Origin: Candidatus Daviesbacteria bacterium
GTDB lineage: Bacteria > Patescibacteriota > Microgenomatia > Daviesbacterales > UBA10151
DNA length: 64,000 bases
Direction: 5' to 3'
Assembly (NCBI GenBank): GCA_021731695.1
Contig: JAKFWZ010000078.1
Coordinates: 25,073 to 89,072, forward strand
This document shows, in pieces, positions 6,663 to 64,000 of the stretch. The notes under the pieces are model-generated. The model did no database searches. It saw only the letters and a list, made by a program, of their open reading frames with translations, and was not told the DNA's origin. The stretch's first letter is position 1. Every line of letters starts with the position of its first letter. The position numbers and the translations under genes are program-made.

Positions 6663-6674
6663 AATTTAAAATTT

Positions 6675-7772
6675 TTAAACGTACCCTTTCGACATTAATA
6701 TTTTTAGTAGATAAGAGTAGTTAATATATTCTTTATTTTTGATTTGATCTGCAACCTTTGTTTTTTTCTTCTTTTGATAAGCAGTGATTAGGGGAGTAGC
6801 TTCCAGGATAAAAGCGTCGGATCCGGCTCCTGATCCGTAACTACATAAAAATATTTTTTGGTTTGGTTTAGCGATATCTAAAACTGCAGCTAATCCTAAA
6901 AGAGAAGAGGCAGAGTAGGGGTTGCCGATATCCTCAACTTTAAAACCTGCTTCTAATTGTTCTTTTTTAAAGCCTAATTTTTTTGCCACCTCTTTTGGGA
7001 ACTTACTGTTTGGCATATGAAAAACAACATAATCAAAATCTGAGGGTTTCGTCTTGGTTTTTTCCATCAAATGAGTTGATGCACTCATTACATGAGTGAA
7101 ATACGCCGGATCTCCGGTGAATCTGCCTCCGTGTGAGGGAAATTTTTGTCCGTCGCGTCTCCAAAAATCCGGTGTATCGGATGAATAGGATGTTGATTCG
7201 ATTACATTGGCGATGACTTTCTTGCCGCTTCCTAAAACGGATCCTTCAGCTCCTTTTGGGTTCTTGCTAGTTGAATCGGAACCCAAAATAAAAGCGGCGG
7301 ACGCAGAAGCTGCCGTGTATTCTAAAGCATCCCCGGGTTTTGCTTGTGCAACATCGGACCCAATCACTAAACCGTATTTATTTTTCTTAAGTTCATCCAT
7401 CATGGAGATAAGCCTCATCGCTGCGGTTGCGGCTTTGCAGGCAAATTGAGTGTCGATAGCCAAATAGTTGTGCGGAAGACCCAATATTTCGCCAACGATA
7501 GTAGAAGTAGGTTTTACTGCATATGGGTGAGATTCTGAACCAACCGCTAAAGCTTTAATGTCGGCCAAGGGGATTTGACCAGATTCGATTGCAGCCATAC
7601 CTGCTTCGACAGCAAGTGTCGTGGCGTCCTCGTCCAGTGAAGCTACGGATTTTTCACTGAGCCCTAAACCTCTTTCGATTTCTCCGGCATTCTTATTCCA
7701 GAAATTCGCAATTTCAGAAATCTTAACGCGATATTTAGGAATGTAAGTTCCGTATGAAATTATTCCAATCAT
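6675..7772 (-). CDS. mvaS: Hydroxymethylglutaryl-CoA synthase (archaeal type)
   Basis: N-terminus MIGIISYGTYIPKYRV. Motifs FACKAAT and GSGAGSDAF. Confidence 0.8.
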   Translation of the reverse strand: MIGIISYGTYIPKYRVKISEIANFWNKNAGEIERGLGLSEKSVASLDEDATTLAVEAGMAAIESGQIPLADIKALAVGSESHPYAVKPTSTIVGEILGLPHNYLAIDTQFACKAATAAMRLISMMDELKKNKYGLVIGSDVAQAKPGDALEYTAASASAAFILGSDSTSKNPKGAEGSVLGSGKKVIANVIESTSYSSDTPDFWRRDGQKFPSHGGRFTGDPAYFTHVMSASTHLMEKTKTKPSDFDYVVFHMPNSKFPKEVAKKLGFKKEQLEAGFKVEDIGNPYSASSLLGLAAVLDIAKPNQKIFLCSYGSGAGSDAFILEATPLITAYQKKKKTKVADQIKNKEYINYSYLLKILMSKGYV

Positions 7773-7790
7773 GTTTAATATTTAATAAAC

Positions 7791-7915
7791 CAATAAACCA
7801 ATAAACCAATTTCAAATAAAATTGCCTTGGGACTTCGTCTAAAACCAATTCCCAATGCGCTCCAATCTTATTGAAATTTGTATATTTGACATTGGTTTAT
7901 TTGTATATTCTAGCG
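7791..7915. repeat. Dyad CCAAT/ATTGG intergenic element, copy 2
   Basis: Structure is (aaaccaat)x3, then gacttcgtctaaaaccaattcccaat, then tttgacattggtttatttg. The core is 24/26 identical to 50348-50373. The arms are inverted (aaaccaatgtcaa vs ttgacattggttt). Confidence 0.6.
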
Positions 7916-9055
7916 TCCTTTCCTTCCAAGTTTAACATGCGAACTTGCCAGGGTGCCTTCTGAAAGTGAAGCAAGTAGTGAGAGTTCGCCGGCTAAAACT
8001 GAAGCGGCTATAACTTCAGAAAATTCTAGCACATCTTGAGCACCAATTATATTTAGAGCCTCTTTTTGCGAAGGCAGATTGGTTCCTCCGCCGACGGTCC
8101 CAACCATTAAGGAGGGGAGATAGACAGAGAAATATAAATCACCTTTTTCTGTAACTTCTGCACTGGTTACTCCTAAACTTCCTTCAACAATTTGTCCCAG
8201 GTCCTGTCCCGTTGCAGCAAAAATTGCAGCAATTATATTTGCAAAATGTGCATTAAATCCAATAGATCCGGCCATTGCCGAACCCGTTAGAACTTTTCTA
8301 TAAACTAAGTCAGCTATTTTTTCAGGTGTGGTTTTTAAAATCTCGCGAACGACAGATTTTTTAAGTGTGCAATCTGCCCAAACCATTTTTCCCCGACCTT
8401 CTATAAAATTCAGCCAAGCCGGTTTTTTATCAATATCATAATTTCCTGAAATAGAAATGCAACTTGATCCGGTATTTTTTTCAATAAACGGGATAACATC
8501 AGTAACAGCGATAGTTGCCATATTCATTCCCATTGCGTCTTTTGAATCAAAAGAAAATCTCACAAATAAATTTTTCCCTGCAAGGCTGGAAGTGATTGTA
8601 TTAAGTTTTAAATGAGAAGAGGTGCTTTCGCAAATCTTGGCAATTTTTCCGAAATTTCTCCCCAACCATTTTTTTATTTCAAAAGAGTGAGTGATGCCAC
8701 GGGTTTTAAAAACCGGACTTCTGGTTACACCAACATTTTGGATTTCGACAGAAGCTCCTCCTGAAAGAGCTACGGCTTTGCAGCCTCTTGAAACGGAAGC
8801 AACTAAAGCGCCTTCTGTTGTGGCGAGGGGAATGTAATATTTGCGCGTGGCTTGTGGCGCGTGGCGAATGGAAATTGGACCTGCAATTCCCAGAGGAATC
8901 TGAACAGAACCGATTAAGTTTTCAATATTTTTACCATTTACAGATTCCTCTGAAAAGTTAAAACCGGAAATTGCATTAAGATTTATTTTAAGCTCTGATT
9001 CTAAAAAATCTTTCCTACTCGCAGCTGTTTTAAAATCGCGAAGACTTTTGCTCAT
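7910..9055 (-). CDS. mvaA: HMG-CoA reductase
   Basis: Motifs ENLIGSVQIPLGIAGP, DAMGMNM and GTVGGGT. Confidence 0.85.
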   Translation of the reverse strand: MSKSLRDFKTAASRKDFLESELKINLNAISGFNFSEESVNGKNIENLIGSVQIPLGIAGPISIRHAPQATRKYYIPLATTEGALVASVSRGCKAVALSGGASVEIQNVGVTRSPVFKTRGITHSFEIKKWLGRNFGKIAKICESTSSHLKLNTITSSLAGKNLFVRFSFDSKDAMGMNMATIAVTDVIPFIEKNTGSSCISISGNYDIDKKPAWLNFIEGRGKMVWADCTLKKSVVREILKTTPEKIADLVYRKVLTGSAMAGSIGFNAHFANIIAAIFAATGQDLGQIVEGSLGVTSAEVTEKGDLYFSVYLPSLMVGTVGGGTNLPSQKEALNIIGAQDVLEFSEVIAASVLAGELSLLASLSEGTLASSHVKLGRKGR

Positions 9056-9081
9056 AAGCGAGATGTCATTCTAACAAATCT

Positions 9082-10218
9082 GTGCGCAAATGGGAAATTT
9101 GTGTTACAGTATCGGGCATGGATTTTACAGAGTTCTTAAAACTAAATTCAAAAAAAATTGATGAAGAAGTTGCAGAAATATTGCAGAATGAATTGGTATT
9201 CACTAAGAGATTAACCCCTCAGCTTAATGAATTTAAAAAAGCATCAATAGGCGGAAAAAGAGTTAGAGGAGCACTGGTATTGCTGGGGTATAGAATTGCC
9301 GGTGGAAAAAATTCTAAAGAAATTCTAAAAGCCTCAGCAGCTTTTGAAATCTTTCAAACTTCAATTCTTGCACAAGATGATGTAATCGATAAATCTTTAA
9401 CCAGAAGAGGGAAAAAATCCTTAGCAGCTTCTTTGGGAAATGATCATAAAGCTTTAGCTGATACGATTTGTCTAACAGATCTGGGATTTTTTATATCATA
9501 TAAAACTCTGGCTCTGCTTAAAATTGAGGAAAAATATAAGAATCAGGCGATAGTGCACTTTTCTGAAATGTCTGTGAGTACTGGTTTAGGTGAAATGCTT
9601 GATGTGGAGATTTCAATGAATAATGACATTAGTGAAGGCGAAATTTTAGAAGTGGCAAAGCTCAAAACTGCAATTTATACAATTTCCGGCCCCTTAGTGT
9701 TAGGGGCAATTCTTGCCGGAGCTAAAGATAAGCTAATTGAAGAACTTGAAAATTTTGGAGAGAATTTAGGAGTTGCATTTCAAATTCAGGACGACATATT
9801 AGGAGTTTTTGGAACTGAAAAAAAAACAGGAAAATCAGATACCTCAGACATAGAAGAAGGGAAGAAAACACTACTCTTAAGTCATGCGCTAGAGAATGCA
9901 AAAGTTGAGTCTAAGAGGACTCTGGTAAAAATCTACGGCAGTAGTAATATTGATAAGTTGGATTTAGAACAGGTTAAAAAGATTTTTACTGAAACAGGAA
10001 GTCTTGATTACGCAAAAGCCAGAGCTGAGGATTATTTTAGCAAGGCAGAAAGCACATTGAAAAATCCGCAACTTGATGTTTTAAGAGATCTGATTGATTT
10101 TATTGCCAAGCGGGAAAGTAGTGGGCTTCAGCTGGCGAATAAACAGAAATCATCCCGCGCCGCAAGAGGAGCCGCGGACTTAATTCCGCGGAGACTCATT
10201 AAAAAAAGGAAAAAATGA
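9082..10218 (+). CDS. trans-Polyprenyl diphosphate synthase (FPP/GGPP synthase family)
   Basis: Two Asp-rich motifs (LAQDDVIDKS and FQIQDDILG). The real start may be Met13 at 9118. Confidence 0.8.
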   Translation: MRKWEICVTVSGMDFTEFLKLNSKKIDEEVAEILQNELVFTKRLTPQLNEFKKASIGGKRVRGALVLLGYRIAGGKNSKEILKASAAFEIFQTSILAQDDVIDKSLTRRGKKSLAASLGNDHKALADTICLTDLGFFISYKTLALLKIEEKYKNQAIVHFSEMSVSTGLGEMLDVEISMNNDISEGEILEVAKLKTAIYTISGPLVLGAILAGAKDKLIEELENFGENLGVAFQIQDDILGVFGTEKKTGKSDTSDIEEGKKTLLLSHALENAKVESKRTLVKIYGSSNIDKLDLEQVKKIFTETGSLDYAKARAEDYFSKAESTLKNPQLDVLRDLIDFIAKRESSGLQLANKQKSSRAARGAADLIPRRLIKKRKK

Positions 10219-10304
10219 CTGAAAATTATATTCCAAAACACATAGCAATAATTATGGATGGAAATGAGTCTTTTTCGAAGCCTCTTTCCTGGCGAATTCT
10301 ATGA
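10215..10304 (+). CDS. 29-codon upstream ORF mimicking the UppS N-terminus, ATGA-coupled on both sides
   Basis: Encodes MTENYIPKHIAIIMDGNESFSKPLSWRIL. Its ATG overlaps the TGA of the prenyl synthase and its TGA overlaps the uppS ATG. It is a degenerate copy of uppS codons 10-25. Confidence 0.3.
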   Translation: MTENYIPKHIAIIMDGNESFSKPLSWRIL

Positions 10305-11047
10305 GTATTAATAAACAACCAAGCGAAGAATTTGTTCCTAGACATATTGCCATCATAATGGACGGAAATAGGCGCTGGGCGCGGGTTAGGGGACTTGAGG
10401 ATATCGAGGGACACGAGAAAGGTTCAGAAACTTTGGAAAAAATTGTAGAAGCCGCAGCCAAAGCGGGTGTTAAAACACTTACGGTTTATGCACTCTCAAC
10501 AGAAAATATAAAGGAGCGAGCTAAAAGGGAGATGGGGGGATTATTTAATTTAATGAAATCTTCTTACAACAAAAAAATAAAGAAGATGATGAAAAACGGG
10601 GTGCGGGTAGAAATCTTAGGAGAATTAAATGGTTTGCCTTCTATAATAAAAAATGTAATTAATGAAATCAGAAAAACATATATAGATAACGAAGCGATTA
10701 AATTAAACATTGCCCTAAATTATGGAGGCAAGAAAGAGCTAGTTGAGGCAGTTAAGGACTTAATAAAAGAAGGAATTGATTTAAATGAGCAAAGCTCGAA
10801 ACTTAAAGAATATGTTTCTAAATTAAGCGAATCTGATATCAGTAAAAAACTTTATACTAAAGGAGATACTGATCCCGAACTTGTCATCAGAACCGGCGGA
10901 AGGATTAGACTTTCAAATTTCTTACTCTGGCAGACTGCATACTCAGAGCTTTATTTTACAAAAACTCTTTGGCCGGATTTTGATGAAAAAGAATTTAAAA
11001 AAGCACTTAGCTGGTACAAAAGACAAAAAAGAAATTTTGGGAAGTAA
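10301..11047 (+). CDS. uppS: Undecaprenyl-diphosphate synthase (cis-prenyltransferase)
   Basis: Motifs PRHIAIIMDGNRRWA and RTGGRIRLSNFLLWQTAYSELYF. Confidence 0.9.
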   Translation: MSINKQPSEEFVPRHIAIIMDGNRRWARVRGLEDIEGHEKGSETLEKIVEAAAKAGVKTLTVYALSTENIKERAKREMGGLFNLMKSSYNKKIKKMMKNGVRVEILGELNGLPSIIKNVINEIRKTYIDNEAIKLNIALNYGGKKELVEAVKDLIKEGIDLNEQSSKLKEYVSKLSESDISKKLYTKGDTDPELVIRTGGRIRLSNFLLWQTAYSELYFTKTLWPDFDEKEFKKALSWYKRQKRNFGK

Positions 11048-11088: not shown

Positions 11089-11373
11089 ATGAACACTGTA
11101 AAAGTATCCGCCACCAAAGCTAGGAATAATTTCTTCGAACTTTTAAATCAGGTCGTACTTGGTGCCCGCATAATCATTGTGAAAGATAGAAAGGAGATTG
11201 CAGTCCTATCTCCTAAAAAAAACAAAACTGACTGGAAAGCGCTTCGCCTGGCGACCAAAAAATCACACGGAGCTTTAAAAGACTACGATCCAGAAGATAA
11301 CCCGCTTAGGAAAACAGGAGCGGCTGACTTCTTGGGTAAATGGGACACCAAAGATTACAAAATAGGAGGTTAG
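11089..11373 (+). CDS. Phd/YefM-family antitoxin
   Basis: N-terminus TKARNNFFELLNQVVLGARIIIV. Overlaps the downstream PIN gene. Confidence 0.6.
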   Translation: MNTVKVSATKARNNFFELLNQVVLGARIIIVKDRKEIAVLSPKKNKTDWKALRLATKKSHGALKDYDPEDNPLRKTGAADFLGKWDTKDYKIGG

Positions 11374-11762
11374 TTTCACTGAAATTAGTACTGGACACTA
11401 GTATATTGATTGACCATCTAAGAGGTGGTGATAAGTGGAAACGCATTCTAAGCGAGCTCGAAGAAGATACCGAAATCTATATATCTTCCATAGTGCTCTT
11501 TGAATTATATTCAGGAAAAAGTAGTCAGAATCCACAAATTTCCAGCAAAATCCAACAACTGGTCAAAAATTTTCAAAAAATAGAAATTGATGCCTATTTG
11601 GCGCAAAAAGCTGGAGAGCTTTATCGGGATATGAAACAGACTATTCAAATCCCAGATTATATAATAGCTGCCAGTGCATTGGAAATTGGTGCTCAAGTTG
11701 CAACTTTAAACAACAAAGACTTTGAACAGATCCCCGGTCTTAAACTATATTCAGTAACATAA
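11340..11762 (+). CDS. vapC: PIN-domain toxin (VapC-like)
   Basis: Motif LVLDTSILIDHLRGGD and later acidic residues. The start is uncertain: the ATG at 11340 overlaps the antitoxin, and the alternative lies near an AGGAGG at 11365. Confidence 0.65.
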   Translation: MGHQRLQNRRLVSLKLVLDTSILIDHLRGGDKWKRILSELEEDTEIYISSIVLFELYSGKSSQNPQISSKIQQLVKNFQKIEIDAYLAQKAGELYRDMKQTIQIPDYIIAASALEIGAQVATLNNKDFEQIPGLKLYSVT

Positions 11763-11767
11763 AATCC

Positions 11768-11822
11768 TCTGGCTGGATTTTGATGAAAAGGAATTCAAAA
11801 AAGCCCTAAGTTGGTATGAGCC
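11768..11822 (+). repeat. Direct repeat of the uppS 3' end (orphan fragment), about 85% identical to 10968-11025
   Basis: ctctggctggattttgatgaaaaggaattcaaaaaagccctaagttggtatgag matches the uppS C-terminal codons LWPDFDEKEFKKALSWY. Confidence 0.75.
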
Positions 11823-11829
11823 TCTGGGG

Positions 11830-11935
11830 ACTCCTCTTCGCTTCGCCCGTAGTTTCTCTTCCTGCCCGCCTTCGGCGGGATTCGCCTACCGGCGAAGCAA
11901 ACTTCATCCAGGACGCACATCCGTGGTTTTCGTTT
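11830..11935 (+). ncRNA. GC-rich structured element B, a candidate sRNA or terminator homologous to element A
   Basis: Outer stem gcttcgcc/ggcgaagc encloses a cccgcc-TTCG-ggcggg tetraloop hairpin. Then comes CTTCATCC and a weak hairpin plus CGTGGTTTT. Confidence 0.3.
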
Positions 11936-11995: not shown

Positions 11996-12535
11996 CTAAG
12001 GCTGCTTTGCTGATTTTGAGGATTCGCTTGCTCCCATTTCAGCGGGTCTGAACAAAGCTGCTGACCCGGAGGCGGTTGGGATAGGAGGCGGGGCCTTGTA
12101 TGGGACATTGTATATAATTGAAGATATCGTAAACTTATCCTCAACCATATCTAGGTTTACTGTAAGTTGTGTATTTAAATCAATTGACTCTGGGTCAACG
12201 TCTGGGATTTGTTGGTTATCTGAAGTAGTTTTATTTATATAAAATGTTTTGCCTGTTTCAAATGCTCCTTCAGTGCCGTTTTGGTTTTTGACAGTAATCC
12301 ATTTTCCGTCAACTTTTACAACTTTTCCTTCAATCGCGGCCGATTGTCTGGAAAAAACAGGTTTAGCTTTTAGGTTTTCCGGAGTCAATTTATTAGAACC
12401 TAAATTCATCCCCAAAATAAGACCAAAAATAATTCCTACAATTAACCCAAGTAAAATTTTCGCAATTTGAAAGCTTTTGCTCGATGGAATTTTTTGATTT
12501 ATATTAGGTTGGACATAAGGGCTTTCCGAATTCAT
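11996..12535 (-). CDS. Hypothetical N-terminally anchored protein
   Basis: One TM helix (ILLGLIVGIIFGLILG) followed by a soluble domain. Confidence 0.4.
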   Translation of the reverse strand: MNSESPYVQPNINQKIPSSKSFQIAKILLGLIVGIIFGLILGMNLGSNKLTPENLKAKPVFSRQSAAIEGKVVKVDGKWITVKNQNGTEGAFETGKTFYINKTTSDNQQIPDVDPESIDLNTQLTVNLDMVEDKFTISSIIYNVPYKAPPPIPTASGSAALFRPAEMGASESSKSAKQP

Positions 12536-28079: not shown

Positions 28080-28871
28080 ATGAAAAAAGATCTAAAACTT
28101 ACCTCATCATTATTTGTTGGCAGGTTCCAACCCTTTCACAAGGGGCATCAAACTTTAATAGAAACAGTTTTAAAAAAAGGCAAACCTGTGGTTATTGCTT
28201 TAAGAGATACAGAAATCTCTCATAAAAATCCTTATACAGTTCATGAAAGATGGTCCATGATTCAGAAAGCCCTTAAAAAATATGGCGAGCTTGTCAAAAT
28301 TGTAGTAATACCTGATATTGATGAAATTTGTTACGGCAGGGAAGTGGGCTATGACATCAGAAAAATAGATCTGGACGAGAGAACCGAAAGTATCTCCGGG
28401 ACAAAAACCAGAGAAAAAAACCCACCCACAAAACCCATCATCTGGCTGACTGGTCAATCAGGTGCAGGCAAATCAACTTTAGCTAATGCTCTCCAAAAAG
28501 AAATTGGGGGAGTAATCTTAGATGGGGATGAAATGAGGGAAACTATCTCTCAAGGCCTAGGCTTTTCAAAGATAGACAGGGAAACTCATAACTTAAAAGT
28601 AGCAAGTCTTGCTTTGATGCTTGCAAAAAAAAATATAGTTATAGTCTCAGTCATAGCTCCCTTTGCAGATACCAGAGTAAAAATAGATAAATTAATTAAA
28701 CCAATCTGGGTTTATGTTAAAAGAAAATTACCTAAAGATTCGAGTAAGCCTTATGAAGAACCTCGCGATCCTGATATAGGAGTCGAATCTGACAAACAAA
28801 CTACAGCTAAACAGGTAGCAGTAATAACTGAATTTCTTAAAAAAACTAACCATAAATTTGGTAACCTCTAA
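28080..28871 (+). CDS. Fusion: small HxGH nucleotidyltransferase domain plus adenylylsulfate (APS) kinase
   Basis: N-terminal domain has GRFQPFHKGH (cytidylyl/adenylyl-transferase superfamily). C-terminal domain has IWLTGQSGAGKST...LDGDEMR..GLGFS..DR..N..., the CysC signature. Confidence 0.7.
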   Translation: MKKDLKLTSSLFVGRFQPFHKGHQTLIETVLKKGKPVVIALRDTEISHKNPYTVHERWSMIQKALKKYGELVKIVVIPDIDEICYGREVGYDIRKIDLDERTESISGTKTREKNPPTKPIIWLTGQSGAGKSTLANALQKEIGGVILDGDEMRETISQGLGFSKIDRETHNLKVASLALMLAKKNIVIVSVIAPFADTRVKIDKLIKPIWVYVKRKLPKDSSKPYEEPRDPDIGVESDKQTTAKQVAVITEFLKKTNHKFGNL

Positions 28872-29329
28872 GGCGATACGGATGGCTGGACTTTAGTTGC
28901 TAAACTAGGTGCAGGTCTTGGTGAGGATTGCGGAGTCGTGTATTGAATAGAAACTACCTGGTATTTTCCATCCAACATCTCAAGACCTATAACCGCCTCT
29001 TTGTTAAGCTCGATAGTTGATAAATCTCCTTTAGATACCTTATTTGCGGGTGAAATAATTACTAATCCATATGCAGCTCCAAAGGTTTCAGATAAATTAT
29101 TGTTTGTGCTGGTAATTTTTAACTCTTCACTCAAAACTTGGATTATTTTGCCCCGAATATAGGCGTTTTGAGTAAAAAATAGTCTAGTGTCAACTTCAGG
29201 TTGTGCTTGCGGAGTTAGATTGACTGGAGCTGAATTATTACCCCAAATCAAAAATCCAATAATAACTCCGGCGAGAAAAAAAATTACAGATAAAAAATAA
29301 GGCATGCCTCTCTTTATTACATTTACCAT
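28868..29329 (-). CDS. Small anchored protein, paralog of 30174-30629
   Basis: Shared EAVIGLEMLDGKYQVVSIQY block. Confidence 0.45.
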   Translation of the reverse strand: MVNVIKRGMPYFLSVIFFLAGVIIGFLIWGNNSAPVNLTPQAQPEVDTRLFFTQNAYIRGKIIQVLSEELKITSTNNNLSETFGAAYGLVIISPANKVSKGDLSTIELNKEAVIGLEMLDGKYQVVSIQYTTPQSSPRPAPSLATKVQPSVSP

Positions 29330-30173: not shown

Positions 30174-30629
30174 TTAAAGGCTTTGTAACTGGGAGGATTG
30201 AGTTGCTGGTTTTAAGGCGGGCCTAAGAAGAGGTGGGGAAGCAGAAATATATTGTATAGTTACTGCCTGATAAGTTCCGTTAATCATTTCGAGCCCAATT
30301 AAAACCTCCTTACCTGCCTCAAGTACTGATAAATCTGATGTGGGCTTATTGTTTCCAGGGATGGTGATAATTATTCTGTCGGAGACTGCAACATTCCCGG
30401 AGATATTATTGTTCAAATTGGTAACTGCAAGATTTTTACCATTAATTTGATCAATTCTGCCACGGATATTTGCAATTTGCGAAGAATACAGAGGATTATC
30501 TATATTTATTTTAGTCTCCTGAATTACAGGCTGAGAAGGTGCGGGTTTGTTGTTTGCAAAAAAGCCCAAACCTATTCCGGCTAAGAATACAATTCCTGTG
30601 AATAAATAAAATCTAATATCTTTTGGCAT
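30174..30629 (-). CDS. Small anchored protein, paralog of 28868-29329
   Basis: Shared EVLIGLEMINGTYQAVTIQY block. Confidence 0.45.
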   Translation of the reverse strand: MPKDIRFYLFTGIVFLAGIGLGFFANNKPAPSQPVIQETKINIDNPLYSSQIANIRGRIDQINGKNLAVTNLNNNISGNVAVSDRIIITIPGNNKPTSDLSVLEAGKEVLIGLEMINGTYQAVTIQYISASPPLLRPALKPATQSSQLQSL

Positions 30630-30807
30630 AATATAATTCTTGCCTTAATTTCTAATGTTGTCAACCTTTAAAAGTAAGGTTCGTAGATAATTGAGTGAAG
30701 CAGAAAACTACGGATTTTAATTCGTGGGTTAAGTGAGTTTCCCCTGGAGAGGAGACTGTCCCGCTCGAGGTTTTAATTTCGCAAAATAAGCTGTTTTCGG
30801 GTAAAAT

Positions 30808-31020
30808 ATGCAGATGAAATTAAATGCAAAACAACTTCGTAATTCGTTATTAGTTAAGTCGTTAAAAAACAAAACGAAAAACGAAACAACGAAAAACGAG
30901 ATCTATATAATCTTAGACAATATTGTAGACACTTATAATATTGGTGCGATTTTCAGGCTGGCTGATGCAGTTGCAACTAAAAAAGCTTACCCTTGGGGAA
31001 AAATGGATTATTCTTCCTAG
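30808..31020 (+). pseudogene. Orphan 5' fragment of a SpoU/TrmH methyltransferase gene, about 88% identical to 31792-31965
   Basis: Encodes MKLNAKQLRNSLLVKSLKNKTKNETTKNEIYIILDNIVDTYNIGAIFRLADA, then diverges and stops. It is interrupted by the TA module. Confidence 0.65.
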
Positions 31021-31433
31021 GGTTCTTTGCGGATTATGTTAGTAATTTTATCAAAATCCTCATCGTAAGAGTAAATTGTCTTGGCTGTTGATTGTTGGGT
31101 AAGCACAGCGAGTATTGCATCTGTGAAGTCGATATTTTTATCAACATAATAATCCAATGCTTGAATGATGACTTGTTTATTCTCAACTTTAAAGTTTGGA
31201 TATCGCAACAGAGGAACTAATAAATCCCTTATCTTGTGTTTGGGCAAATTGTAGAGATTGGGGGATGAAAGTACAAAAACTGCATCAGCAATGACAGTTT
31301 CAGGCGCAGATAAAATTAATTCACCTCCTGAGGCCTTTTCAAAAAGAACTGTCGAATCTTTACGTCTACGCTCATCATCACCGGTTAGAAGTCTAATAAT
31401 TACATTTGTATCAACATATGAATCATTTGCCAT
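31017..31433 (-). CDS. vapC: PIN-domain toxin (VapC-like)
   Basis: Motifs YVDTNVIIRLL...TDAILA...YDEDFD. Confidence 0.7.
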   Translation of the reverse strand: MANDSYVDTNVIIRLLTGDDERRRKDSTVLFEKASGGELILSAPETVIADAVFVLSSPNLYNLPKHKIRDLLVPLLRYPNFKVENKQVIIQALDYYVDKNIDFTDAILAVLTQQSTAKTIYSYDEDFDKITNIIRKEP

Positions 31434-31740
31434 ATTTCTCTTTTAAATAATCCTCACGGGCTATATTTCGCACTTGCTTCCAAGGAAGGGGTTTTTTGAG
31501 TTTTCCTGCACCACCACTTAAGGATTTAATGTCAGGATATTTGGCAGGTGTCACCTGGACTAAGCCGCCTGGGCTGATAACAAAAGCCACTTTATCATTA
31601 GTATCTACTCCTAAATGTTTACGTACCTCAATAGGAATAGTTATTTGTCCTTTACTGCTTAATGTAGTGACTAATTGTTTAGAATGGGTATTTTGTAGCA
31701 TGAGTAAGAATATATTATCATTGTCCTTACTTACCGTCAA
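31423..31740 (-). CDS. AbrB/MazE/SpoVT-fold antitoxin
   Basis: Motif SSKGQITIPIEVRKHLGV. The likely start is Met14. Confidence 0.6.
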   Translation of the reverse strand: MTVSKDNDNIFLLMLQNTHSKQLVTTLSSKGQITIPIEVRKHLGVDTNDKVAFVISPGGLVQVTPAKYPDIKSLSGGAGKLKKPLPWKQVRNIAREDYLKEKYGK

Positions 31741-31789
31741 TAGGTAAAGAATTTGATAAAATTATGCTATTATACAATTTACAATATTT

Positions 31790-32332
31790 ATGAAACTTAA
31801 TGCAAAACAACTTCGTAATTCGTTATTCGCTAAGTCGCTGAAAAAGAAAACGAAAAACGAAACAACGAAAAACGAAATTTATATTGTTTTAGATAATATT
31901 CTGGACACTTATAATATTGGTGCGATTTTCAGGCTGGCTGATGCTATTGCCGCAAAAAAAGTTATGATTTGTGGTGATTCAGAAATTCCGCCAAACCACA
32001 GAATTAAAAAAGCCTCAATTAATACTACAGAAGTTGTGGACTGGAGCTATTCAGAAACAACGGCTGAGGCCATAAAAAATTTGCGTAAAACTGTTTCAGG
32101 GATTCAAATTGTAGCTATAGAGCAGGCGGAAAATTCAATTCGTTATGATGAATTTGAATATAAATTTCCGATAGCTTTAATCGTGGGGCATGAAACCGAC
32201 GGTATTTCTAAAGAGGTTTTGGATGAGTGCGATGGGATTGTAGAAATGCCAATGTATGGAATAAATATCAGTTTAAATGTAATGGTTTCACTGGCGATTG
32301 TTCTGTATAAAGCACTGGAGAAAATTCAGTAA
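31790..32332 (+). CDS. SpoU/TrmH-class RNA 2'-O-methyltransferase
   Basis: Motifs IVLDNILDTYNIGAIFRLADA and IVGHETDGIS. Confidence 0.7.
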   Translation: MKLNAKQLRNSLFAKSLKKKTKNETTKNEIYIVLDNILDTYNIGAIFRLADAIAAKKVMICGDSEIPPNHRIKKASINTTEVVDWSYSETTAEAIKNLRKTVSGIQIVAIEQAENSIRYDEFEYKFPIALIVGHETDGISKEVLDECDGIVEMPMYGINISLNVMVSLAIVLYKALEKIQ

Positions 32333-32363: not shown

Positions 32364-32603
32364 ATGACAAGAATTATTATAGATCCCAAGATTATGCTGG
32401 GTAAACCAATAGTAGCCGGGACCAGAATAACAGTAGAGCAGATTCTGAGGCTGTTAGCGCAGAAATTAACTATTAAAGATATTTTAGAAGATTTCCCCCA
32501 GCTTAAAGAAGCTGATGTTAAAGCAGCTGTAGAATATGCTGCAAAAAGAGTTGCAGAGCCGGAGCCCGACGCTATACGCTACCTGCATGAAATTCATCAC
32601 TGA
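32364..32603 (+). CDS. DUF433 antitoxin-like protein
   Basis: Motif IIIDPKIMLGKPIVAGTRITVEQIL. Confidence 0.55.
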   Translation: MTRIIIDPKIMLGKPIVAGTRITVEQILRLLAQKLTIKDILEDFPQLKEADVKAAVEYAAKRVAEPEPDAIRYLHEIHH

Positions 32604-32910
32604 TGAAAACCTGGGGGTCCGGATACCCCGATTCCTTAAGAGTCTGGGCTTCGATATTATCTCCGTAACGGAAGTTGCATTAAGTCACCCTGACACTGAT
32701 GTTTTGGCACTAGCCAATAAAGAAAATAGAATTCTTCTGACGACAGATAAAGATTTTGGCGAACTGGTTTTCAAAGAAAAACTGATTCATTCCGGCGTAA
32801 TACTGCTTAGGTTAAAAGATGAATCGGTTGAGAATAAAAAAAGGGTGTTGTTGCGGGAGTTAAAATCAGGTAAAAATTTTGAAGGAAAATTTACTAGAGT
32901 TAGGGATTAA
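32587..32910 (+). CDS. DUF5615 PIN-like toxin partner
   Basis: Motif MKFITDENLGVRIPRFLKSLGFDI...ILLTTDKDF. Confidence 0.55.
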   Translation: MKFITDENLGVRIPRFLKSLGFDIISVTEVALSHPDTDVLALANKENRILLTTDKDFGELVFKEKLIHSGVILLRLKDESVENKKRVLLRELKSGKNFEGKFTRVRD

Positions 32911-36031: not shown

Positions 36032-36341
36032 CTTGCGTAAAAGTAGGAAAAAGACCTGTCGATACTATCTAACCGGATAGCTTCGACTCCAAAAGAGTGG
36101 TGGGAAAAAACACGATCAATTAAATGATTGTGAGACAAGAGTATAAGTTTCATGAAAGTGAAGCCAAGCTCTGTCAATTCCAAATTTTAGTAAGCAAAGC
36201 TTGCGATAGTTCCGGCTAACGCCGTGTAACTATCTAAGTAATACTTACTTCGAAAACAATAAATCGAAATTTCACTTTCACAAGTGATACAGCGTTTTAG
36301 AGTTGGAAAAACTTTTTAAGTGTTTTAAAAACACTTTATTT

Positions 36342-36384
<43 letters not shown>

Positions 36385-36589
36385 TAAGCATGCAAGTCGA
36401 ACGATCTGTAGCAATACAGGTAGTGGCGGACGGTCGAGTAACGCGTGGGGATCTGCCTTAAAGTTGGACATAGCTCATCGAAAGGTGGGGTAATTTCCAA
36501 TGTGAACGTAAGTTCAAAGCCGCAAGGCGCTTTAAGATGAACCCGCGTCCTATCAGCTAGTTGGTGGGGTAAAAGCCTACCAAGGCATC

Positions 36590-36621
<32 letters not shown>

Positions 36622-37159
36622 GGAATAGCACTGAGACACGGGCTATACATCTACGGATGGCAGCAACTGGGAATCTTGCGCAATGGGGGAAACCCTGACG
36701 CAGCGACGCCGCGTGGAGGATTGAAGGCCCTCGGGTTGTAAACTCCTTTTGACTGGGAAGATTATGACTGTACCAGTAGAATAAGCACCTGCTAACTACG
36801 TGCCAGAAGCCTCGGTAATACGTAGGGTGCAAGCGTTATCCGGATTTATTGGGCGTAAAGTGTTGCGTAGGCTGATTTGCGCATTTTGTTTAAAAGGCTA
36901 AGGCTTAACCTTAGTTTTGGGCAAAATATGGCAAATCTTGATGGTTTAAGAGGGTACTGGAACTTAACATGTAGCAGTGAAATGCGTTGATATGTTAAGG
37001 AACACCAAAGGCGTAGGCAGGTACCTGGGAAACTCATGACGCTGAGGCACGACAGCTAGGGGAGCGAAGCAGATTAGAGACCTGCGTAGTCCTAGCCGTA
37101 AACGATGAATGCTAGTTAGTCCCTCTTTTGGGACCGACGTAAGGTAACCCGTTAAGCAT

Positions 37160-37210
<51 letters not shown>

Positions 37211-37671
37211 AGGCGCACAAGCAGTGGAGCATGTGGTTTAATTCGATACAAAGCGAAAAACCTCACCAGGGTTTGACATGTAGTTGCTAAGCCTAAGAAA
37301 CTAGGCCTCCTTCGAGGGTACTACACAGATGGTGCATGGCTGTCGTCAGCTCGTGGCGTGAGCTGTACCGTTAAGTCGGGTAACGAGCGCAACCCGCATC
37401 GTATGTTAAATAATTCATACGAAACAGCCCCAATTTTTGGGGAGGAAGGCGCGGATGACGTCAAGTCAGCACGCCTCTTACACCCTGGGCTACACACATC
37501 CTACAATGGCGAATAACAACGAGTTGCAAGCCGGTAACGGCAAGCTAATCTCTAAAATTTCGCCCCAGTTCAGATTGAGGGCTGCAATTTGCCCTCATGA
37601 AGTCGGAATTGCTAGTAATCGCGAATCAGCAGGTCGCGGTGAATACGTTCTCGCCTCTTGTACACACCGCC

Positions 37672-38603
37672 TTATAGTATTTAACATAATGCTATAAAAA
37701 AACGCGCGTGGCAGCGTAAATATCTAGTTGGTTAAAGTCCAACCTATACTTAATAGTAGTCAAAAAAATTTGGCAGATCCGATAGAGTAATTTATCGATT
37801 TGGAGGGCCTGAGACAAATAGCAGTCCTCAGATAAAAAAATCTTTTAATAAGTGATCTCAGCCGGGCGGTTTGAGAGAAATTTAACGATTAGGAAAAGAT
37901 TTTTGAGGAATGTTAGGAATAGATATTAACGTGACCCATGGAGATCCTACTGGGAAGAAGGTAATTGCCCAGAGGAAGTCAGCAGATTCATAGTAGGTAT
38001 TATTGACATTTGGGTTAGATTCGGGTTAATCTGAATTTATACCAAATAAATACTGAAGGGATCTACGAAATGTTAACACCAGACTATATTGTTGGTTTAA
38101 CCGATGGAGAAGGCTGTTTTCTGGTTCAGATAAGAACCGATTGTCGAATAGTCTTGAGATATTTTATTACACAACGTTTTGATAATGTCGAACTTTTAAA
38201 CAAAGTTTATGGCTTTTTCAAAATAGGCTATGTATATCGAAAATTTCAGGGAAATGACAAAAAGAAAATGACCTTTGTCTATGAGGTAACGAAACAAAAC
38301 GATATTCAAAATGTGATTATTCCTTTCTTTAGGAAATATCCATTAGAAGGTATCAAAAATGAGTCTTTTAGAAGGTTTGCCCGTATTGCTGAGATTGTAA
38401 AAAATCGACAGGATACACGTAAATTATCTGAAGATGAATTAAAAGAAGTCTGGCATTTGAAGCTCTCTATGAATTCTCTTCATAATGAGCCAAAGGATCG
38501 TCTGAGCGGAGCTCGTAATGATCCCAGAAACATTTCGGCTCGCTTAGTGCCGGAAATCGGCTCGCTAAGTGGGAACGGAAAACAACCTTAAGTTATTCCA
38601 ATC
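37672..38603 (+). mobile_element. Self-splicing intron (probably group I) in 16S near E. coli position 1400, carrying a homing-endonuclease ORF
   Basis: Insertion between ACACCGCC and CGTCA. Contains the LAGLIDADG ORF. Boundaries are good to about 2 nt. Confidence 0.65.
38070..38591 (+). CDS. LAGLIDADG homing endonuclease (intron-encoded)
   Basis: Motif YIVGLTDGEGCF. It lies inside the 16S insertion. Confidence 0.75.
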   Translation: MLTPDYIVGLTDGEGCFLVQIRTDCRIVLRYFITQRFDNVELLNKVYGFFKIGYVYRKFQGNDKKKMTFVYEVTKQNDIQNVIIPFFRKYPLEGIKNESFRRFARIAEIVKNRQDTRKLSEDELKEVWHLKLSMNSLHNEPKDRLSGARNDPRNISARLVPEIGSLSGNGKQP

Positions 38604-43327: not shown

Positions 43328-43435
43328 TAAGGGTATTACTAAAGTAGCCTGGCGTTGTAAACATTTAGTAAACCTAAAGTAGAATCCTAGCTTCGGGCAT
43401 GTTAAAATACCTAGGTTTGGAATGAAAATTTTTTT

Positions 43436-43507
43436 GGGCGCGTAGCTCAGCGGTAGAGCGCGTCTCTGATAAAGACGAGGCCCTTGGTTCGACACCAAGC
43501 GCGCCCA
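43436..43507 (+). tRNA. tRNA-Ile (GAU)
   Basis: GGGCGCGTAGCTCAGCGGTAGAGCG, anticodon loop cTGATAa and T-arm GGTTCGA. Confidence 0.85.
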
Positions 43508-43627
43508 CCCCTAAAATTAATTCCTTGCAATTTCAACCGAAATTGTAAAAACGCAACGCTAGGGGTTCGACACAATCACCGCCCACATTGATACTTTTTG
43601 GTTTCTTCTGTTTAAATTTTCCAAAAA

Positions 43628-52754: not shown

Positions 52755-53885
52755 ATGTTAAGTGTTTTAAGCGAATTCTTAAGTAGAAAATTCACTCCTT
52801 TAAATTTAATTACAATATCAAAATCCAGGCTAATCCAGAATTACGAAAGCTTGAGCAAAATTAATCCGGAAATAAAAGTTGCACCGGTTTTAAAATCAAA
52901 TGCTTATGGTCACGGGATAAAACTCGCGGGTAAAATTCTTGATGAAGTTGACGCACCGTTTTTATGCGTAGATTCCTTATACGAAGCCTTTCAGTTAAGA
53001 ACTCACGCCAAAGTAAAAACTCCTATTTTGATTATGGGTTATATTCATCCGGAAAGCTTAAAGATAAAACAGCTTCCTTTTTCTTTTGCTGTTTACGATC
53101 TGGAGCATGTAAAAGCTTTGAATAAGTATCAGGAAAAAGCCCGGGTTCATATCTTTGTCGATACAGGAATGCACAGAGAGGGAATTGATTTGGATAATCT
53201 TGAGGAATTTTTAGAAAGACTAAAAAAACTTGAAAATATTGAAGTCGAAGGCTTGATGTCGCATCTTGCAGAAGCATCAAAACCAGAGTCTCTATTAACT
53301 AAAAAGCAGATAGAAAATTTTGCAAAAGCTAAAGAGATAGTTTTAAAGAAGGGCTTTAAGCCAAAATGGTTTCATATTGGCGGAACTTACGGACTTTTGA
53401 ACAATTTAGCTGCCGGATGTAATTTAGTCCGGATTGGCAGAGCTGTTTACGGGATAGAAGAAAAAGGGGTGGCGGGAATAAATCTCGAACCTGCTTTAAA
53501 ACTGACTACAACTTTGGTTCAGATAAAAAAAGTTAAAAAGGAGGAAAAGATTGGTTATAGCGGAACTTTTACAGCAGATAAAAATATGAGCATAGGGATT
53601 TTGCCATTAGGCTATAACGAAGGTGTAGACCGGAGGCTTTCAGATAAGGGGGTGGTGCTGATTGACGGTATTAAATGTCCCATTGTCGGGCTTGTTAGTA
53701 TGAATATCACGACTATTGATATATCGAACGTAAAAAGACCTGTTTTGGGGCAGGAAGTGGTTGTTTTTTCGGATAATGATGAAGATCCAAACTCTTTAAT
53801 TAAAGCCTGTAAAGCCGGAGGAATTTTGCCGCATGAGATGTTAATTCATATCGCAGAATCAACCAAGAGAGTTATTATTTCCTAG
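52755..53885 (+). CDS. alr: Alanine racemase
   Basis: PLP motif VLKSNAYGHG. C-terminal barrel region. Confidence 0.8.
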   Translation: MLSVLSEFLSRKFTPLNLITISKSRLIQNYESLSKINPEIKVAPVLKSNAYGHGIKLAGKILDEVDAPFLCVDSLYEAFQLRTHAKVKTPILIMGYIHPESLKIKQLPFSFAVYDLEHVKALNKYQEKARVHIFVDTGMHREGIDLDNLEEFLERLKKLENIEVEGLMSHLAEASKPESLLTKKQIENFAKAKEIVLKKGFKPKWFHIGGTYGLLNNLAAGCNLVRIGRAVYGIEEKGVAGINLEPALKLTTTLVQIKKVKKEEKIGYSGTFTADKNMSIGILPLGYNEGVDRRLSDKGVVLIDGIKCPIVGLVSMNITTIDISNVKRPVLGQEVVVFSDNDEDPNSLIKACKAGGILPHEMLIHIAESTKRVIIS

Positions 53886-53953
53886 TGATTAGTGATTAGT
53901 GATTAGTGATTAGTGATTAGTGATTAGTGATTAGTGATTAGTGATTAGTGATT
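53883..53953. repeat. Tandem heptamer (TAGTGAT) x10 with six-frame stops, between convergent genes
   Basis: The first unit supplies the alr TAG stop. The minus-strand neighbour has its TAA stop at 53945-53947, inside the tract. Confidence 0.9.
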
Positions 53954-54487
53954 TAGGGAGTTGAGGGCTTGGTTAAATTTACCGTTTGATTCGATCCTGA
54001 CCTTTAAAACTTTTATTGCGCCAATCTCTCCGTTTCTGTCGCTTGCGATAATAAGTTGATATGAATCAGGGATTGTTTCTGTCGGGATCTGAAAACTGAA
54101 ATTTCCTTCATAATCCGGAGTTATGCCATGCTTTAATCCATCCGGTGCCAGCCATATTTGAAGTGTTGTGCCGGCAGTAGTTGTCCCGCTGATAAAATCG
54201 CCCTGTTTCATTAAATATTGCCTATCAGGATCAAGAGAATCAATCGCGTAATTGTTGGGTTGGACAGCCAGATATTTTTGATAGAGAGGAATTCTTAAAA
54301 ACCAAATTAAAACAAGAATGCCGATAATTTCTGTGATAATTAGCGGAAAGATAAGTTTTTTTCGTTTAGCGCGGGTTAAACCGAATTGATAAGTAATAGC
54401 ATTCATATAAATTTGACGGTAGACGATTGAAGATGGAAGATTGTGGGAGATGGTAGAGAATGGAAAGTAGATAAAATCTATCTTCAA
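53945..54487 (-). CDS. Anchored hypothetical protein
   Basis: TM helix ILVLIWFLRIPLY followed by a soluble domain. Confidence 0.4.
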   Translation of the reverse strand: MKIDFIYFPFSTISHNLPSSIVYRQIYMNAITYQFGLTRAKRKKLIFPLIITEIIGILVLIWFLRIPLYQKYLAVQPNNYAIDSLDPDRQYLMKQGDFISGTTTAGTTLQIWLAPDGLKHGITPDYEGNFSFQIPTETIPDSYQLIIASDRNGEIGAIKVLKVRIESNGKFNQALNSLNH

Positions 54488-54539
54488 TTTTCTATCATCA
54501 AAATACTATCCTCCATTTTCTACCGTCTATAGTCTAAGA

Positions 54540-54842
54540 TTAATTCCCCTCAAGTGCTCTCTGTATTTCTTCAGGAGTTAGGTCTTCAGGATCGCTATTA
54601 ATGGTTTCACAATCTGCGTTATAAGGGTCATTGCATGCAGTATCATCCTCAACCGGATCGGAGACTGGAATAGGGGAAACCGGAATTTTACCGTCACCAA
54701 TTTTAATTACCCCCGTTCCGATCAATGCAAGAGTTGTGGCTAAAATAAGTCCAATCATAGTTAAAACCGCAAGAGCAGAAAAACCTCTGAAAGTGATGAG
54801 TGATGAGTGATGAGTGATGAGTCGGGCAGATTTTTTTATCAT
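54540..54842 (-). CDS. Small single-pass protein with acidic C-x8-C tail and a (GTGATGA)x4 tract in codons 8-17
   Basis: ATGA overlap with the upstream gene. Codons 8-17 (LITHHSSLIT) are encoded by the heptamers. C-terminal motif ACNDPYNADC. Confidence 0.45.
   Translation of the reverse strand: MIKKSARLITHHSSLITFRGFSALAVLTMIGLILATTLALIGTGVIKIGDGKIPVSPIPVSDPVEDDTACNDPYNADCETINSDPEDLTPEEIQRALEGN
54793..54820. repeat. Heptamer tract (GTGATGA) x4 inside the 5' coding region
   Basis: Four perfect units. One unit is 7 nt, not a multiple of 3. Confidence 0.85.
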
Positions 54843-56039: not shown

Positions 56040-56196
56040 AATTTATGGACGCTTGAAGATAGAAAATGGAAGATAGTGGTAGAGAATGGAAAATTGAGAA
56101 TGGACGTCTTAGACGAAGTCGCAAGCCTCGCTTATCTTCGATTCTCAATCTTCAAAATACTATGTTCTATCCTCGATAATCTATCGTCTAATATTT

Positions 56197-61790: not shown

Positions 61791-61862
61791 GGGCCCGTAG
61801 TTCACCGGTAGAACGCTTCATTTGCAATGAAGATGCAGGAGGTTCGACTCCTCTCGGGTCCA
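61791..61862 (+). tRNA. tRNA-Ala (UGC)
   Basis: GGGCCCGTAGTTCACCGGTAGAACG, anticodon loop tTTGCAa and T-arm GGTTCGACTCC. Confidence 0.85.
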
Positions 61863-62254
61863 CAGGTTTAATGATTAAAGAATGATGATTAAGGATTAAT
61901 GAATAAAATCATTAATCGTAAATCTTTAATCACTAATCAATCTTTTTTTGACTTGGATATGGATTTTTGACGAAGAATAGTTGAAAGTCCATATCCGGGC
62001 CGAAGATATGGCTTTAATTCTATTAATTCCCACTAGGGAAAGAGGAATAAAGTTTAAGTCCTTGGAGTTTGTACTTTGAAATGTGAATACGACATAAATG
62101 AAGAGCAATCAGCTCTCAGTCAACAGTCGTCAGCCAATCGCAAGAAAAGCTGAAGTCTGAAAGCTGAAGTCTGAAAGCTCTTTTATGAGAAGGCCAATAA
62201 GGGTCAGATTTAACATCTGATCCATGAGCGTCGTCGAGACGCTCAAAATAGTCA

Positions 62255-64000
<1,746 letters not shown>

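Follow-up and report, generated by a model that had tools for sequence, protein, structure and literature searches.

How does a toxin-antitoxin (TA) gene pair come to lie between two copies of the beginning of a single housekeeping gene, when those copies are both long and diverged? The question is raised by a 64,000-nt stretch (the window) of a metagenome-assembled genome from an uncultured Microgenomates bacterium of the candidate phyla radiation (CPR), in which a VapC/AbrB-type TA cassette sits between an orphan 5' fragment of the RNA 2'-O-methyltransferase gene spoU and the intact gene. CPR bacteria (Patescibacteria) have tiny genomes with few recognisable mobile elements, and their gain of accessory and defence-type genes is poorly understood. 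We compared the window with related loci (designated by L-numbers e.g. L002, L161). On the sequences compared, the locus is one instance of a recurrent Microgenomates phenomenon; it and its relatives show a concrete route, taken repeatedly, by which cassettes settle at the end of a conserved gene and come to have an allelic copy of that end on either side.

The strongest internal repeat in a self-blastn of the window (88.4% over 172 nt, E = 9.9e-58) is an ungapped direct repeat consisting of the first 172 nt of spoU, with the two copies (A and B in Table 1) spaced 976 nt start to start. The diverged duplication lies within about 6 nt of where a first-pass annotation of the window had placed it; the homology begins at the ATG (30814) rather than at 30808, and breaks off sharply at 30985/31961, directly against the cassette. 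The first 12 codons of the two copies are nearly identical and include a 27-nt identical run. Copy A has no frameshift and no stop across its 58 codons. It lies in a 70-codon open reading frame (ORF; 30808-31020) whose TAG (31018-31020) overlaps the stop codon of the opposite-strand vapC gene (31017-19), and it matches only profile positions 2-30 of PF00588, below the cut-off. The product of the intact gene is predicted to belong to the SpoU/TrmH (SPOUT) family on the strength of its full-length domain; its matches to the NCBIfam RlmB and TrmH models are all under the equivalog cut-offs and do not decide between the two substrate types. The upstream allele is a dead-end fragment and the downstream allele is part of a working gene, with the cassette between them. 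The promoter-like site that precedes copy A presumably belongs to the resident spoU; transcription from it would now run into the orphan and, in antisense, into vapC. An imperfect AAAACGA-like heptamer run (31846-31878, also 30870-30902) encodes the variable N-terminal linker of SpoU and may change by slippage; this region is wholly different in sequence and length between lineages.

Orphan and intact copies were compared codon by codon in 11 pairs (299 codons, 129 nucleotide differences). Pooled, 94 differences were synonymous and 35 were not, and third codon positions accounted for 74% of them all; the proportions of differing sites were 0.51 for synonymous (pS) and 0.049 for nonsynonymous sites (pN), giving a pN/pS of 0.10. 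Only one stop codon was found in the 11 orphans. Neutral decay after duplication in place predicts that ∼67-70% of the differences would be nonsynonymous, which these data reject (binomial P <= 1e-20). The window pair taken alone has 12 synonymous and 9 nonsynonymous differences (pN/pS 0.20), while all 16 differences in the L096 pair are synonymous (16 to 0). Identity was 82-91% in the strongest pairs and 79% in two short pairs, never near 100%; the upper end is represented by the L005 pair (91%), and the two L096 orphans are likewise at 91%. These patterns indicate that the copies are alleles that diverged while both were functional, and not an in-place duplication that decayed. Because the differences are biased towards synonymous sites, at least one copy of each pair came from another lineage, where it diverged within a working gene; the first-pass suggestion that the copies derive from different lineages is upheld in this respect. 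The bias is a sequence signature that bears on mechanism. Neither copy A nor copy B can be singled out as the foreign one with the nearest relative SpoU at 76% identity, this being the next-best match after the source protein itself among 5.8 billion proteins; the best matches in scans of one genome per species and of JGI metagenomes were 71% identical, and look-ups of SpoU, VapC and the protein P0121 by exact sequence gave no match.

Pfam domains and ORF positions bear out the VapC/AbrB-type pair that had been predicted between the orphan and the intact gene. Residues D8, D19/D20, D50, D105, D124 and D126 of the PIN-domain toxin are invariant in 20 homologues (47-97% identity), and 546 homologues were found at E <= 1e-10, the named ones being mostly from Microgenomates. 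The toxin gave no sequence match to solved structures and no match to the NCBIfam VapC equivalog models. The antitoxin ORF opens at a TTG (31740), and translation probably begins at the ATG at 31701, which gives 92 aa, equal to the gene call in L161. The antitoxin and vapC ORFs overlap by 11 nt, and the two genes are kept together in L161-L170. With a PIN domain that retains its acidic residues and an adjoining upstream antitoxin gene, the pair fits a type II VapBC system, in which the toxin would arrest growth and the antitoxin neutralise it. A 5-bp inverted repeat, TTACC-N7-GGTAA (31731-31747), overlaps the promoter-like site of the pair and is a candidate operator; both site and repeat are conserved in L161, L162 and L163. 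The outward-facing AT-rich segment likely serves as the promoter of the intact spoU.

Empty sites and recurrence of the architecture

If spoU had once stood here as two tandem paralogues and one had decayed, the TA pair being between them by chance, a fragment beside an intact gene would also result; the two copies of the 5' end are all that speaks for this. The first-pass annotation had allowed that relatives might carry two tandem full-length paralogues here; none of the 114 related loci does (0/114), and the extra copies are all gene-end fragments of at most 68 aa. Comparison with cassette-free relatives, which the annotation had proposed, revealed single-copy spoU in L004, L171 and about 100 other loci. 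In L004, a syntenic empty site, the 151-aa upstream gene is followed after 78 nt by a single spoU, with prs downstream and no cassette. The homology in the window also breaks sharply at the cassette. Paralogue decay is refuted by the relatives examined, and we regard it as scarcely credible.

The single spoU of L171, also syntenic and with neither cassette nor orphan, matches the two window copies at 150 and 148 of 172 positions (87% to the intact copy, 86% to the orphan), while the window copies match each other at 152 (88%). Beyond the repeat the similarity falls, to 69% over the remaining 371 nt of spoU and 68% in prs, and this break coincides with the end of the repeat. The 5' module of spoU therefore has its own history. 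L171 looks like a genome that gained a foreign gene end and may then have lost the cassette by recombination between the repeats. Site patterns among the three alleles (L171, orphan and intact copy), compared for chimerism, were star-like with no block structure.

The closest VapC (P0001, 97% identical) lies on a 931-nt contig, L161, which is 94% identical to the window from ∼30991 to the spoU ATG at 31790 (pS about 0.19). The shared block comprises a 26-nt tail past the vapC stop, both TA genes (pS 0.17-0.21, pN 0.01-0.02) and the AT-rich segment before spoU, in which there are three substitutions and one indel up to the ATG; similarity collapses right after it. The L161 cassette again lies between a spoU orphan and an intact spoU, both of an allele type different from the window's. 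The orphan is on the vapC side, ends at about codon 36, and differs from its intact partner by synonymous changes and in-frame indels. Cassette and gene end therefore do not simply move as one, and the earlier idea of a donor cassette linked to the same gene end is only partly borne out. More distant family members vary further. In L165 (83% identical) a spoU orphan of ∼17 codons adjoins the vapC stop codon; in L162 (81%) the cassette is convergent with uppS and a weak match suggests a possible uppS tail orphan of ∼12 codons on its far side; and in L163, L166, L167 and L170 no orphan was seen. The orphan end therefore varies for the same cassette, from codon 58 in the window to ∼36 in L161 and ∼17 in L165, and trimming on the cassette side, of 0-31 nt, reaches as far as the toxin stop.

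Comparable orphan gene-end pieces occur in at least eight other Microgenomates loci (Table 1). The cargo is a TA pair in about 10 of 16 cargo regions and includes metabolic and RiPP-like (ribosomally synthesised and post-translationally modified peptide) clusters in the remainder, the L092 region 5613-9230, between the intact spoU and a spoU 3' orphan, being a putative RiPP-like biosynthetic cluster that was acquired in this way too. Three lineages (window, L089 and L096) have 5' orphans that stop near codon 58, and three have 3' orphans that begin near codon 150-153. Downstream of the MazE/PIN cassette of L158, three successive spoU 3' orphans lie 32-45 nt apart (6416-6673, equivalent to 4207-4464 in L159), which suggests that cassettes were gained and lost here more than once. 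The MNT-HepT cassettes of L005, L089 and L096 were considered for a second comparison of cassette with arm, and at ∼70% identity they proved too diverged to inform it.

A metagenome assembly that wrongly joined two strain variants would likewise set diverged alleles side by side, and the window does come from a metagenome-assembled genome. Identity of 88% is far beyond strain-level variation, however, and the same structures are present in NCBI, JGI, ENA and Logan assemblies, three of them as identical pairs from independent assemblies (L002=L084, L089=L092, L158=L159); the cassette-to-flank junctions of the window are also reproduced in L161. An artefact is therefore extremely unlikely.

The window itself holds a second instance. 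The recurrence that had been reported at uppS was recovered as a shorter repeat (56 nt, 84%), and the architecture is also present in many relatives. The uppS 3' orphan begins at the stop codon of a PIN toxin, and 8 of its 10 nucleotide differences from the intact gene are synonymous. A further, 5' orphan of uppS differs from the intact copy at eight positions, seven of them synonymous, and is probably the scar of an earlier gene-end replacement. By a hand count, which is weak evidence, it matches the uppS of L162 at 28/33 nt and the window's intact copy at 25/33. Only a 9-nt match would speak for a shared ancestral start of the window and L162 uppS orphans. Directly after the 3' orphan, in place of its last nine codons, is a GC-rich stretch of ∼115 nt (11817-11935) in an otherwise AT-rich genome. 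It has a strong fold on either strand (-42 and -46 kcal/mol), belongs to no Rfam family and has no second copy in the window or in any fetched locus.

Table 1. Positions and content of the features discussed, in the window and in related loci
Feature	Locus	Position	Strand	Basis or content
Promoter-like site TTCGCA-18-TAAAAT	window	30778-30807	+	Consensus scan; directly upstream of orphan
Repeat copy A, orphan spoU 5' fragment, codons 1-58	window	30814-30985	+	Repeat search, blastn, Pfam
Accessory cassette, ∼0.8 kb	window	∼30986-31789		Short tail, vapC, AbrB/MazE antitoxin gene with own promoter-like site, outward AT-rich segment
Cassette tail between orphan end and vapC stop	window	30986-31016	unstranded	30991-31016 common to L161 cassette (alignment)
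VapC-type PIN-domain toxin, 138 aa	window	31017-31433	-	PF01850, E 1.6e-12, above cut-off
AbrB/MazE-fold antitoxin ORF	window	31423-31740	-	PF04014, E 1.7e-8; TIGR01439 AbrB domain; both above cut-off
Promoter-like site of TA pair, TTGACG-17-TAATAT with TG	window	31712-31747	-	Consensus scan
Outward AT-rich segment	window	31748-31789	+	TACAAT hexamers 5-12 nt before spoU ATG; inside block common to L161
Intact SpoU/TrmH-family RNA 2'-O-methyltransferase gene, 180 aa	window	31790-32332	+	PF00588, E 2e-33, profile positions 2-142 of 142
Repeat copy B, first 172 nt of intact spoU	window	31790-31961	+	Repeat search, blastn
Second TA-like pair, DUF433 and DUF5615/PIN-like (Mut7-C)	window	32364-32910	+	Pfam; between spoU stop and convergent prs
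uppS 5' orphan, 17 codons (MTENYIPKHIAIIMDGN)	window	10216-10266	+	34 nt upstream of intact uppS, no cargo between
Intact uppS	window	10301-11047	+	Contains 3' piece 10961-11016
uppS 3' repeat	window	10961-11016 and orphan 11761-11816	+	84% over 56 nt, E 2e-9
Phd-family antitoxin	window	11089-11373		Pfam; between uppS 3' copies
PIN toxin	window	11340-11762		Pfam; between uppS 3' copies
spoU 5' orphans	L089/L092, L005			Cargo MNT and HepT pair
spoU 5' orphan	L096			Cargo ParE-like pair plus MNT and HepT; another orphan, of 15 codons, nested between these cassettes
spoU 5' orphan	L016			Cargo 527-aa gene
spoU 5' orphans	L161, L165			Cargo is a cassette of the window's VapC/AbrB family
spoU 3' orphans, three stacked	L158/L159			Cargo MazE and PIN pair
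spoU 3' orphan, 60 codons	L092	cargo 5613-9230		YcaO cyclodehydratase, nitroreductase-family protein, M16 peptidase, small cysteine-rich ORF (5613-5834)
spoU 3' orphan	L002/L084			Cargo 598-aa protein, AAA_17 protein, NUDIX protein
spoU 3' orphan	L086			Cargo two pyridoxal phosphate (PLP)-dependent enzymes, methyltransferase-like protein, HAD hydrolase
3' end of 339-aa gene	L096			Cargo PIN pair
5' end of 200-aa gene	L128, L006			Sequence suggests methyltransferase
Possible uppS 3' orphan	L162			30 nt, 83%, E 0.017; weak alone

Proposed routes of cassette entry

We infer the exact mechanism of entry, and put about as much trust as doubt in the reading that we favour, in which the conserved gene served as the anchor for host recombination, and the cassette was brought in while one gene end was displaced. 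The incoming DNA, of a related lineage, would carry the cassette joined to that lineage's spoU 5' end, with no dedicated recombinase. Most likely the fragment would be circularised and would enter by a single homologous crossover (Campbell type); alternatively, with the same product, a linear fragment would form one homologous and one illegitimate junction (homology-facilitated illegitimate recombination, HFIR). The insert would then have a resident copy of the gene end on one side and an imported copy on the other. One of these two events is needed because a double crossover gives a clean insertion without duplication. The first-pass proposal of homologous recombination with a cassette donor of a related lineage can therefore be kept as regards host recombination and a foreign allele, and not as regards an ordinary double crossover.

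Several features of the data would follow from such a process. Only 5' and 3' ends would be seen because the gene stays intact only if the fragment carries the true gene end, and near-identical pairs would be lacking because close donors would recombine cleanly on both flanks. Both routes would cover the allelic divergence, the variable orphan ends, the trimming on the cassette side, the nested and stacked orphans and the absence of a recombinase; the cassette boundaries vary as trimming and rejoining would predict. The process would repeat at spoU, uppS and other Microgenomates genes, leaving nested or stacked orphans and, after cassette loss, mosaic genes. Direct repeats on both sides would make any cargo prone to deletion, and TA cargo may predominate because addictive modules resist such loss.

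There are precedents for this reading. Restriction-modification systems are known to enter with long target duplications (PMC2853133). Single crossover of recircularised DNA in E. coli produced end duplications in 56/60 clones, of 109-950 bp in the 14 that were sequenced, after end trimming and recircularisation (PMC3240628). HFIR is on record in three competent species, where the joints have microhomology of 3-10 bp. Natural competence, with integration of the DNA by homologous recombination, is documented in Saccharibacteria, another group of Patescibacteria (PMC10633639).

The same reading has to meet several difficulties. The competence precedent belongs to Saccharibacteria, and competence and RecA genes are presumed for the present genome. 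The databases searched yielded no donor, circular form or close relative, and neither the imported copy nor the crossover position is assignable. The L161 cassette is 94% identical to the window's up to the spoU ATG, yet its orphan and intact spoU are of another allele type; L161 would need an extra step i.e. a rare crossover in the first conserved codons, or an illegitimate event, followed by spread within the clade. The codon-58 orphan end in three lineages could mean a site preference rather than random trimming, although the A-run at this end may instead act as microhomology. Recombination at 12-18% divergence is inefficient in model bacteria. Finally, a flanking orphan is lacking beside some members of the cassette family and beside the DUF433 pair of the window.

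A sub-variant of the favoured reading is a linear, one-sided HFIR event, in which the donor pairs through spoU downstream of codon 58 and the cassette end joins illegitimately at resident codon 58, so that the orphan would be resident DNA throughout and the intact gene would open with a stretch wholly from the donor. It would give the same product, would cover the allelic divergence, the variable orphan lengths and the lack of near-identical pairs, and is a process known from competent species; A-rich sequence is also found at several junctions. The usual experimental outcome, however, deletes recipient DNA of a size similar to that of the insert, the duplications actually observed came from single crossover of a circle, and L161 poses the same difficulty as before. 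We think this version unlikely.

A true insertion with long target duplication, in which a naked cassette entered with duplication of 172 nt in place and the intact copy was later overwritten by alleles of relatives, gives the simplest account of why the window and L161 cassettes match up to the ATG with lineage-specific flanks. The near-identity of the first 12 codons, and the 91% pairs of L005 and the L096 orphans, are also in its favour, and restriction-modification systems provide a precedent (PMC2853133). The codon data suit it poorly: a further, independent recombination event would be required in each of 11 pairs, none of which is near 100%, and the pooled pN/pS rejects duplication plus decay alone. 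In the restriction-modification cases, moreover, the repeats usually resemble each other more closely than they do the empty site (PMC2853133), whereas here L171 is equally close. Such an insertion is, in our judgement, quite improbable.

Long target-site duplications of an ordinary transposon had been discounted by the first-pass annotation, and rightly so: the repeat is 172 nt long and 88% identical, the cassette holds the two TA ORFs only, and neither a transposase nor terminal repeats were found. The one candidate for the latter, a 16-nt inverted repeat (31043-58/31749-64), lies partly in a conserved DFDKI coding motif and is not conserved in L161. The motifs CCTCTGG and CYTYTGGGGA occur at several junctions and are not enriched there (7 against 5.1 expected, and 17 against 16.6). 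No match to the cassette was found in IMG/VR viral contigs, PLSDB plasmids or INPHARED phages.

Long, diverged duplications of gene ends are the classic signature of integrase elements, e.g. phage 21 and e14 in icd and SCCmec in rlmH. The cassette could accordingly be a site-specific integrative element, or the remnant of one, with a surrogate spoU 5' end in its attachment site and its integrase acting in trans or lost, and the recurrence of codon 58 and of codons 150-153, each in three lineages, would suit such an element. We found no integrase, transposase or recombinase domain in the ten neighbouring genes checked (25.7-39.7 kb), which leaves room for a recombinase acting in trans from elsewhere in the genome, and no recombinase in the cargo of eight other loci by domain check or in any of about 16 cargo regions. 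The junctions of the same cassette lie at codons 58, 36 and 17, many genes and both gene ends are targeted, the junction motifs are unenriched and the inverted repeat is not shared with L161. A site-specific element is therefore very unlikely.

Returning to host recombination, a more general and decidedly tentative proposal is that Microgenomates carry mobile cassettes without a recombinase, whose sole mobility determinant would be the borrowed end of a conserved housekeeping gene. The repeat would let a cassette loop out and enter related genomes anew by RecA-dependent single crossover, its arm being re-templated on the local allele in each cycle. If so, one cassette could reach lineages in which the target genes can no longer be aligned, the scars left behind would be stacked orphans and mosaic housekeeping genes, and TA pairs would be the preferred cargo as their loss is penalised. 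Entry through a homologous gene end, if true, would explain the build-up of TA pairs beside housekeeping genes, the spoU and uppS mosaics and the crossing of cassettes between lineages. In annotation, orphan gene ends are readily mistaken for small proteins or pseudogenes; they can also mark past gene flow.

Other features of the window

The DUF433/DUF5615 pair has no flanking repeat and is absent from L171, L082 and L091, where spoU adjoins prs directly. The pair is therefore an insertion, so that spoU carries one at either end. The gene conserved just upstream of spoU, also found beside it in L004, L083 and L085, belongs to one of the small paralogous gene families without a Pfam domain in the window (27-38% identity; 28868-29329, 30174-30629 and 11996-12535; also 19646-20158/29420-30085).

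The 16S and 23S rRNA genes (36336-37743 and 62260-64000) are 24.5 kb apart, with tRNA-Ile, tRNA-Ala (43435-43510 and 61791-61863) and ∼20 protein ORFs between them; a LAGLIDADG endonuclease ORF (38070-38591) begins 330 nt past the end of the 16S gene. The rRNA operon appears to be split by inserted DNA. Within this interval are a tandem heptamer array, (AGTGATT)n, at 53870-53953, a related degenerate copy 4.8 kb off (58710-58751), and intergenic repeats of 53-63 nt near the arrays (54422-54541 and 56048-56195).

Comparison with known systems

We did not find this architecture described for TA cassettes or for CPR bacteria in the literature searched, although its parts resemble known systems. 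The cargo resembles type II VapBC modules in having a PIN toxin gene after an overlapping AbrB/MazE-fold antitoxin gene, a promoter-like site with an inverted repeat and conserved acidic residues; it differs from characterised VapBC in that the window VapC matches neither solved structures nor NCBIfam VapC equivalogs.

In phage 21 and e14 at icd, and in SCCmec at the rlmH 3' end (rlmH likewise encodes a SPOUT methyltransferase), the element supplies a diverged gene end, which keeps the target gene whole, and the displaced end is left as an orphan. Such elements can accrete in tandem at the same site, and they use dedicated integrases or Ccr recombinases and fixed core sites, whereas here no recombinase was found and the junction positions vary. 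The minimal mobile elements of Neisseria, reportedly introduced by Saunders and Snyder in 2002, are cassettes free of mobility genes that transformation and homologous recombination exchange at set positions between conserved genes, with TA genes among the cargo. They have two different flanking genes and no duplication; here both arms derive from one gene end.

HFIR likewise brings in foreign DNA through one homologous anchor in a conserved gene and an illegitimate joint, by host recombination and natural transformation; its typical outcome is an insertion coupled to a deletion, and here a gene end is duplicated. In Campbell-type integration (Amarir-Bouhram et al. 2011, PMC3240628) the insert is, as here, flanked by two homologous copies whose length is set by end trimming. 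That was a laboratory plasmid system in E. coli, whereas the present case would be a natural exchange of chromosomal fragments between diverged lineages, with no circle observed.

The nearest natural parallel in form is the insertion with long target duplication described for restriction-modification gene complexes (Nobusato et al. 2000; Furuta, Abe and Kobayashi 2010, PMC2853133), which share with our cassettes an addictive module of the post-segregational killing type, no mobility gene and long direct repeats. The restriction-modification repeats are 46-420 bp long and single-copy in the empty site, and occur mostly in naturally competent species by a mechanism that is unresolved (PMC2853133). 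The window also has a module without mobility genes, with repeats of more than 30 bp that are single-copy in genomes without the insert; its repeats are not clearly more alike than either is to the empty site (152 against 150 and 148 of 172). The restriction-modification repeats are near-identical copies of the target, whereas those described here are alleles of 82-91% identity with a synonymous bias, always include a gene end, and flank TA or metabolic genes in a CPR host. If cassettes do enter by way of a homologous gene end, long target duplication would extend to another class of addictive module.

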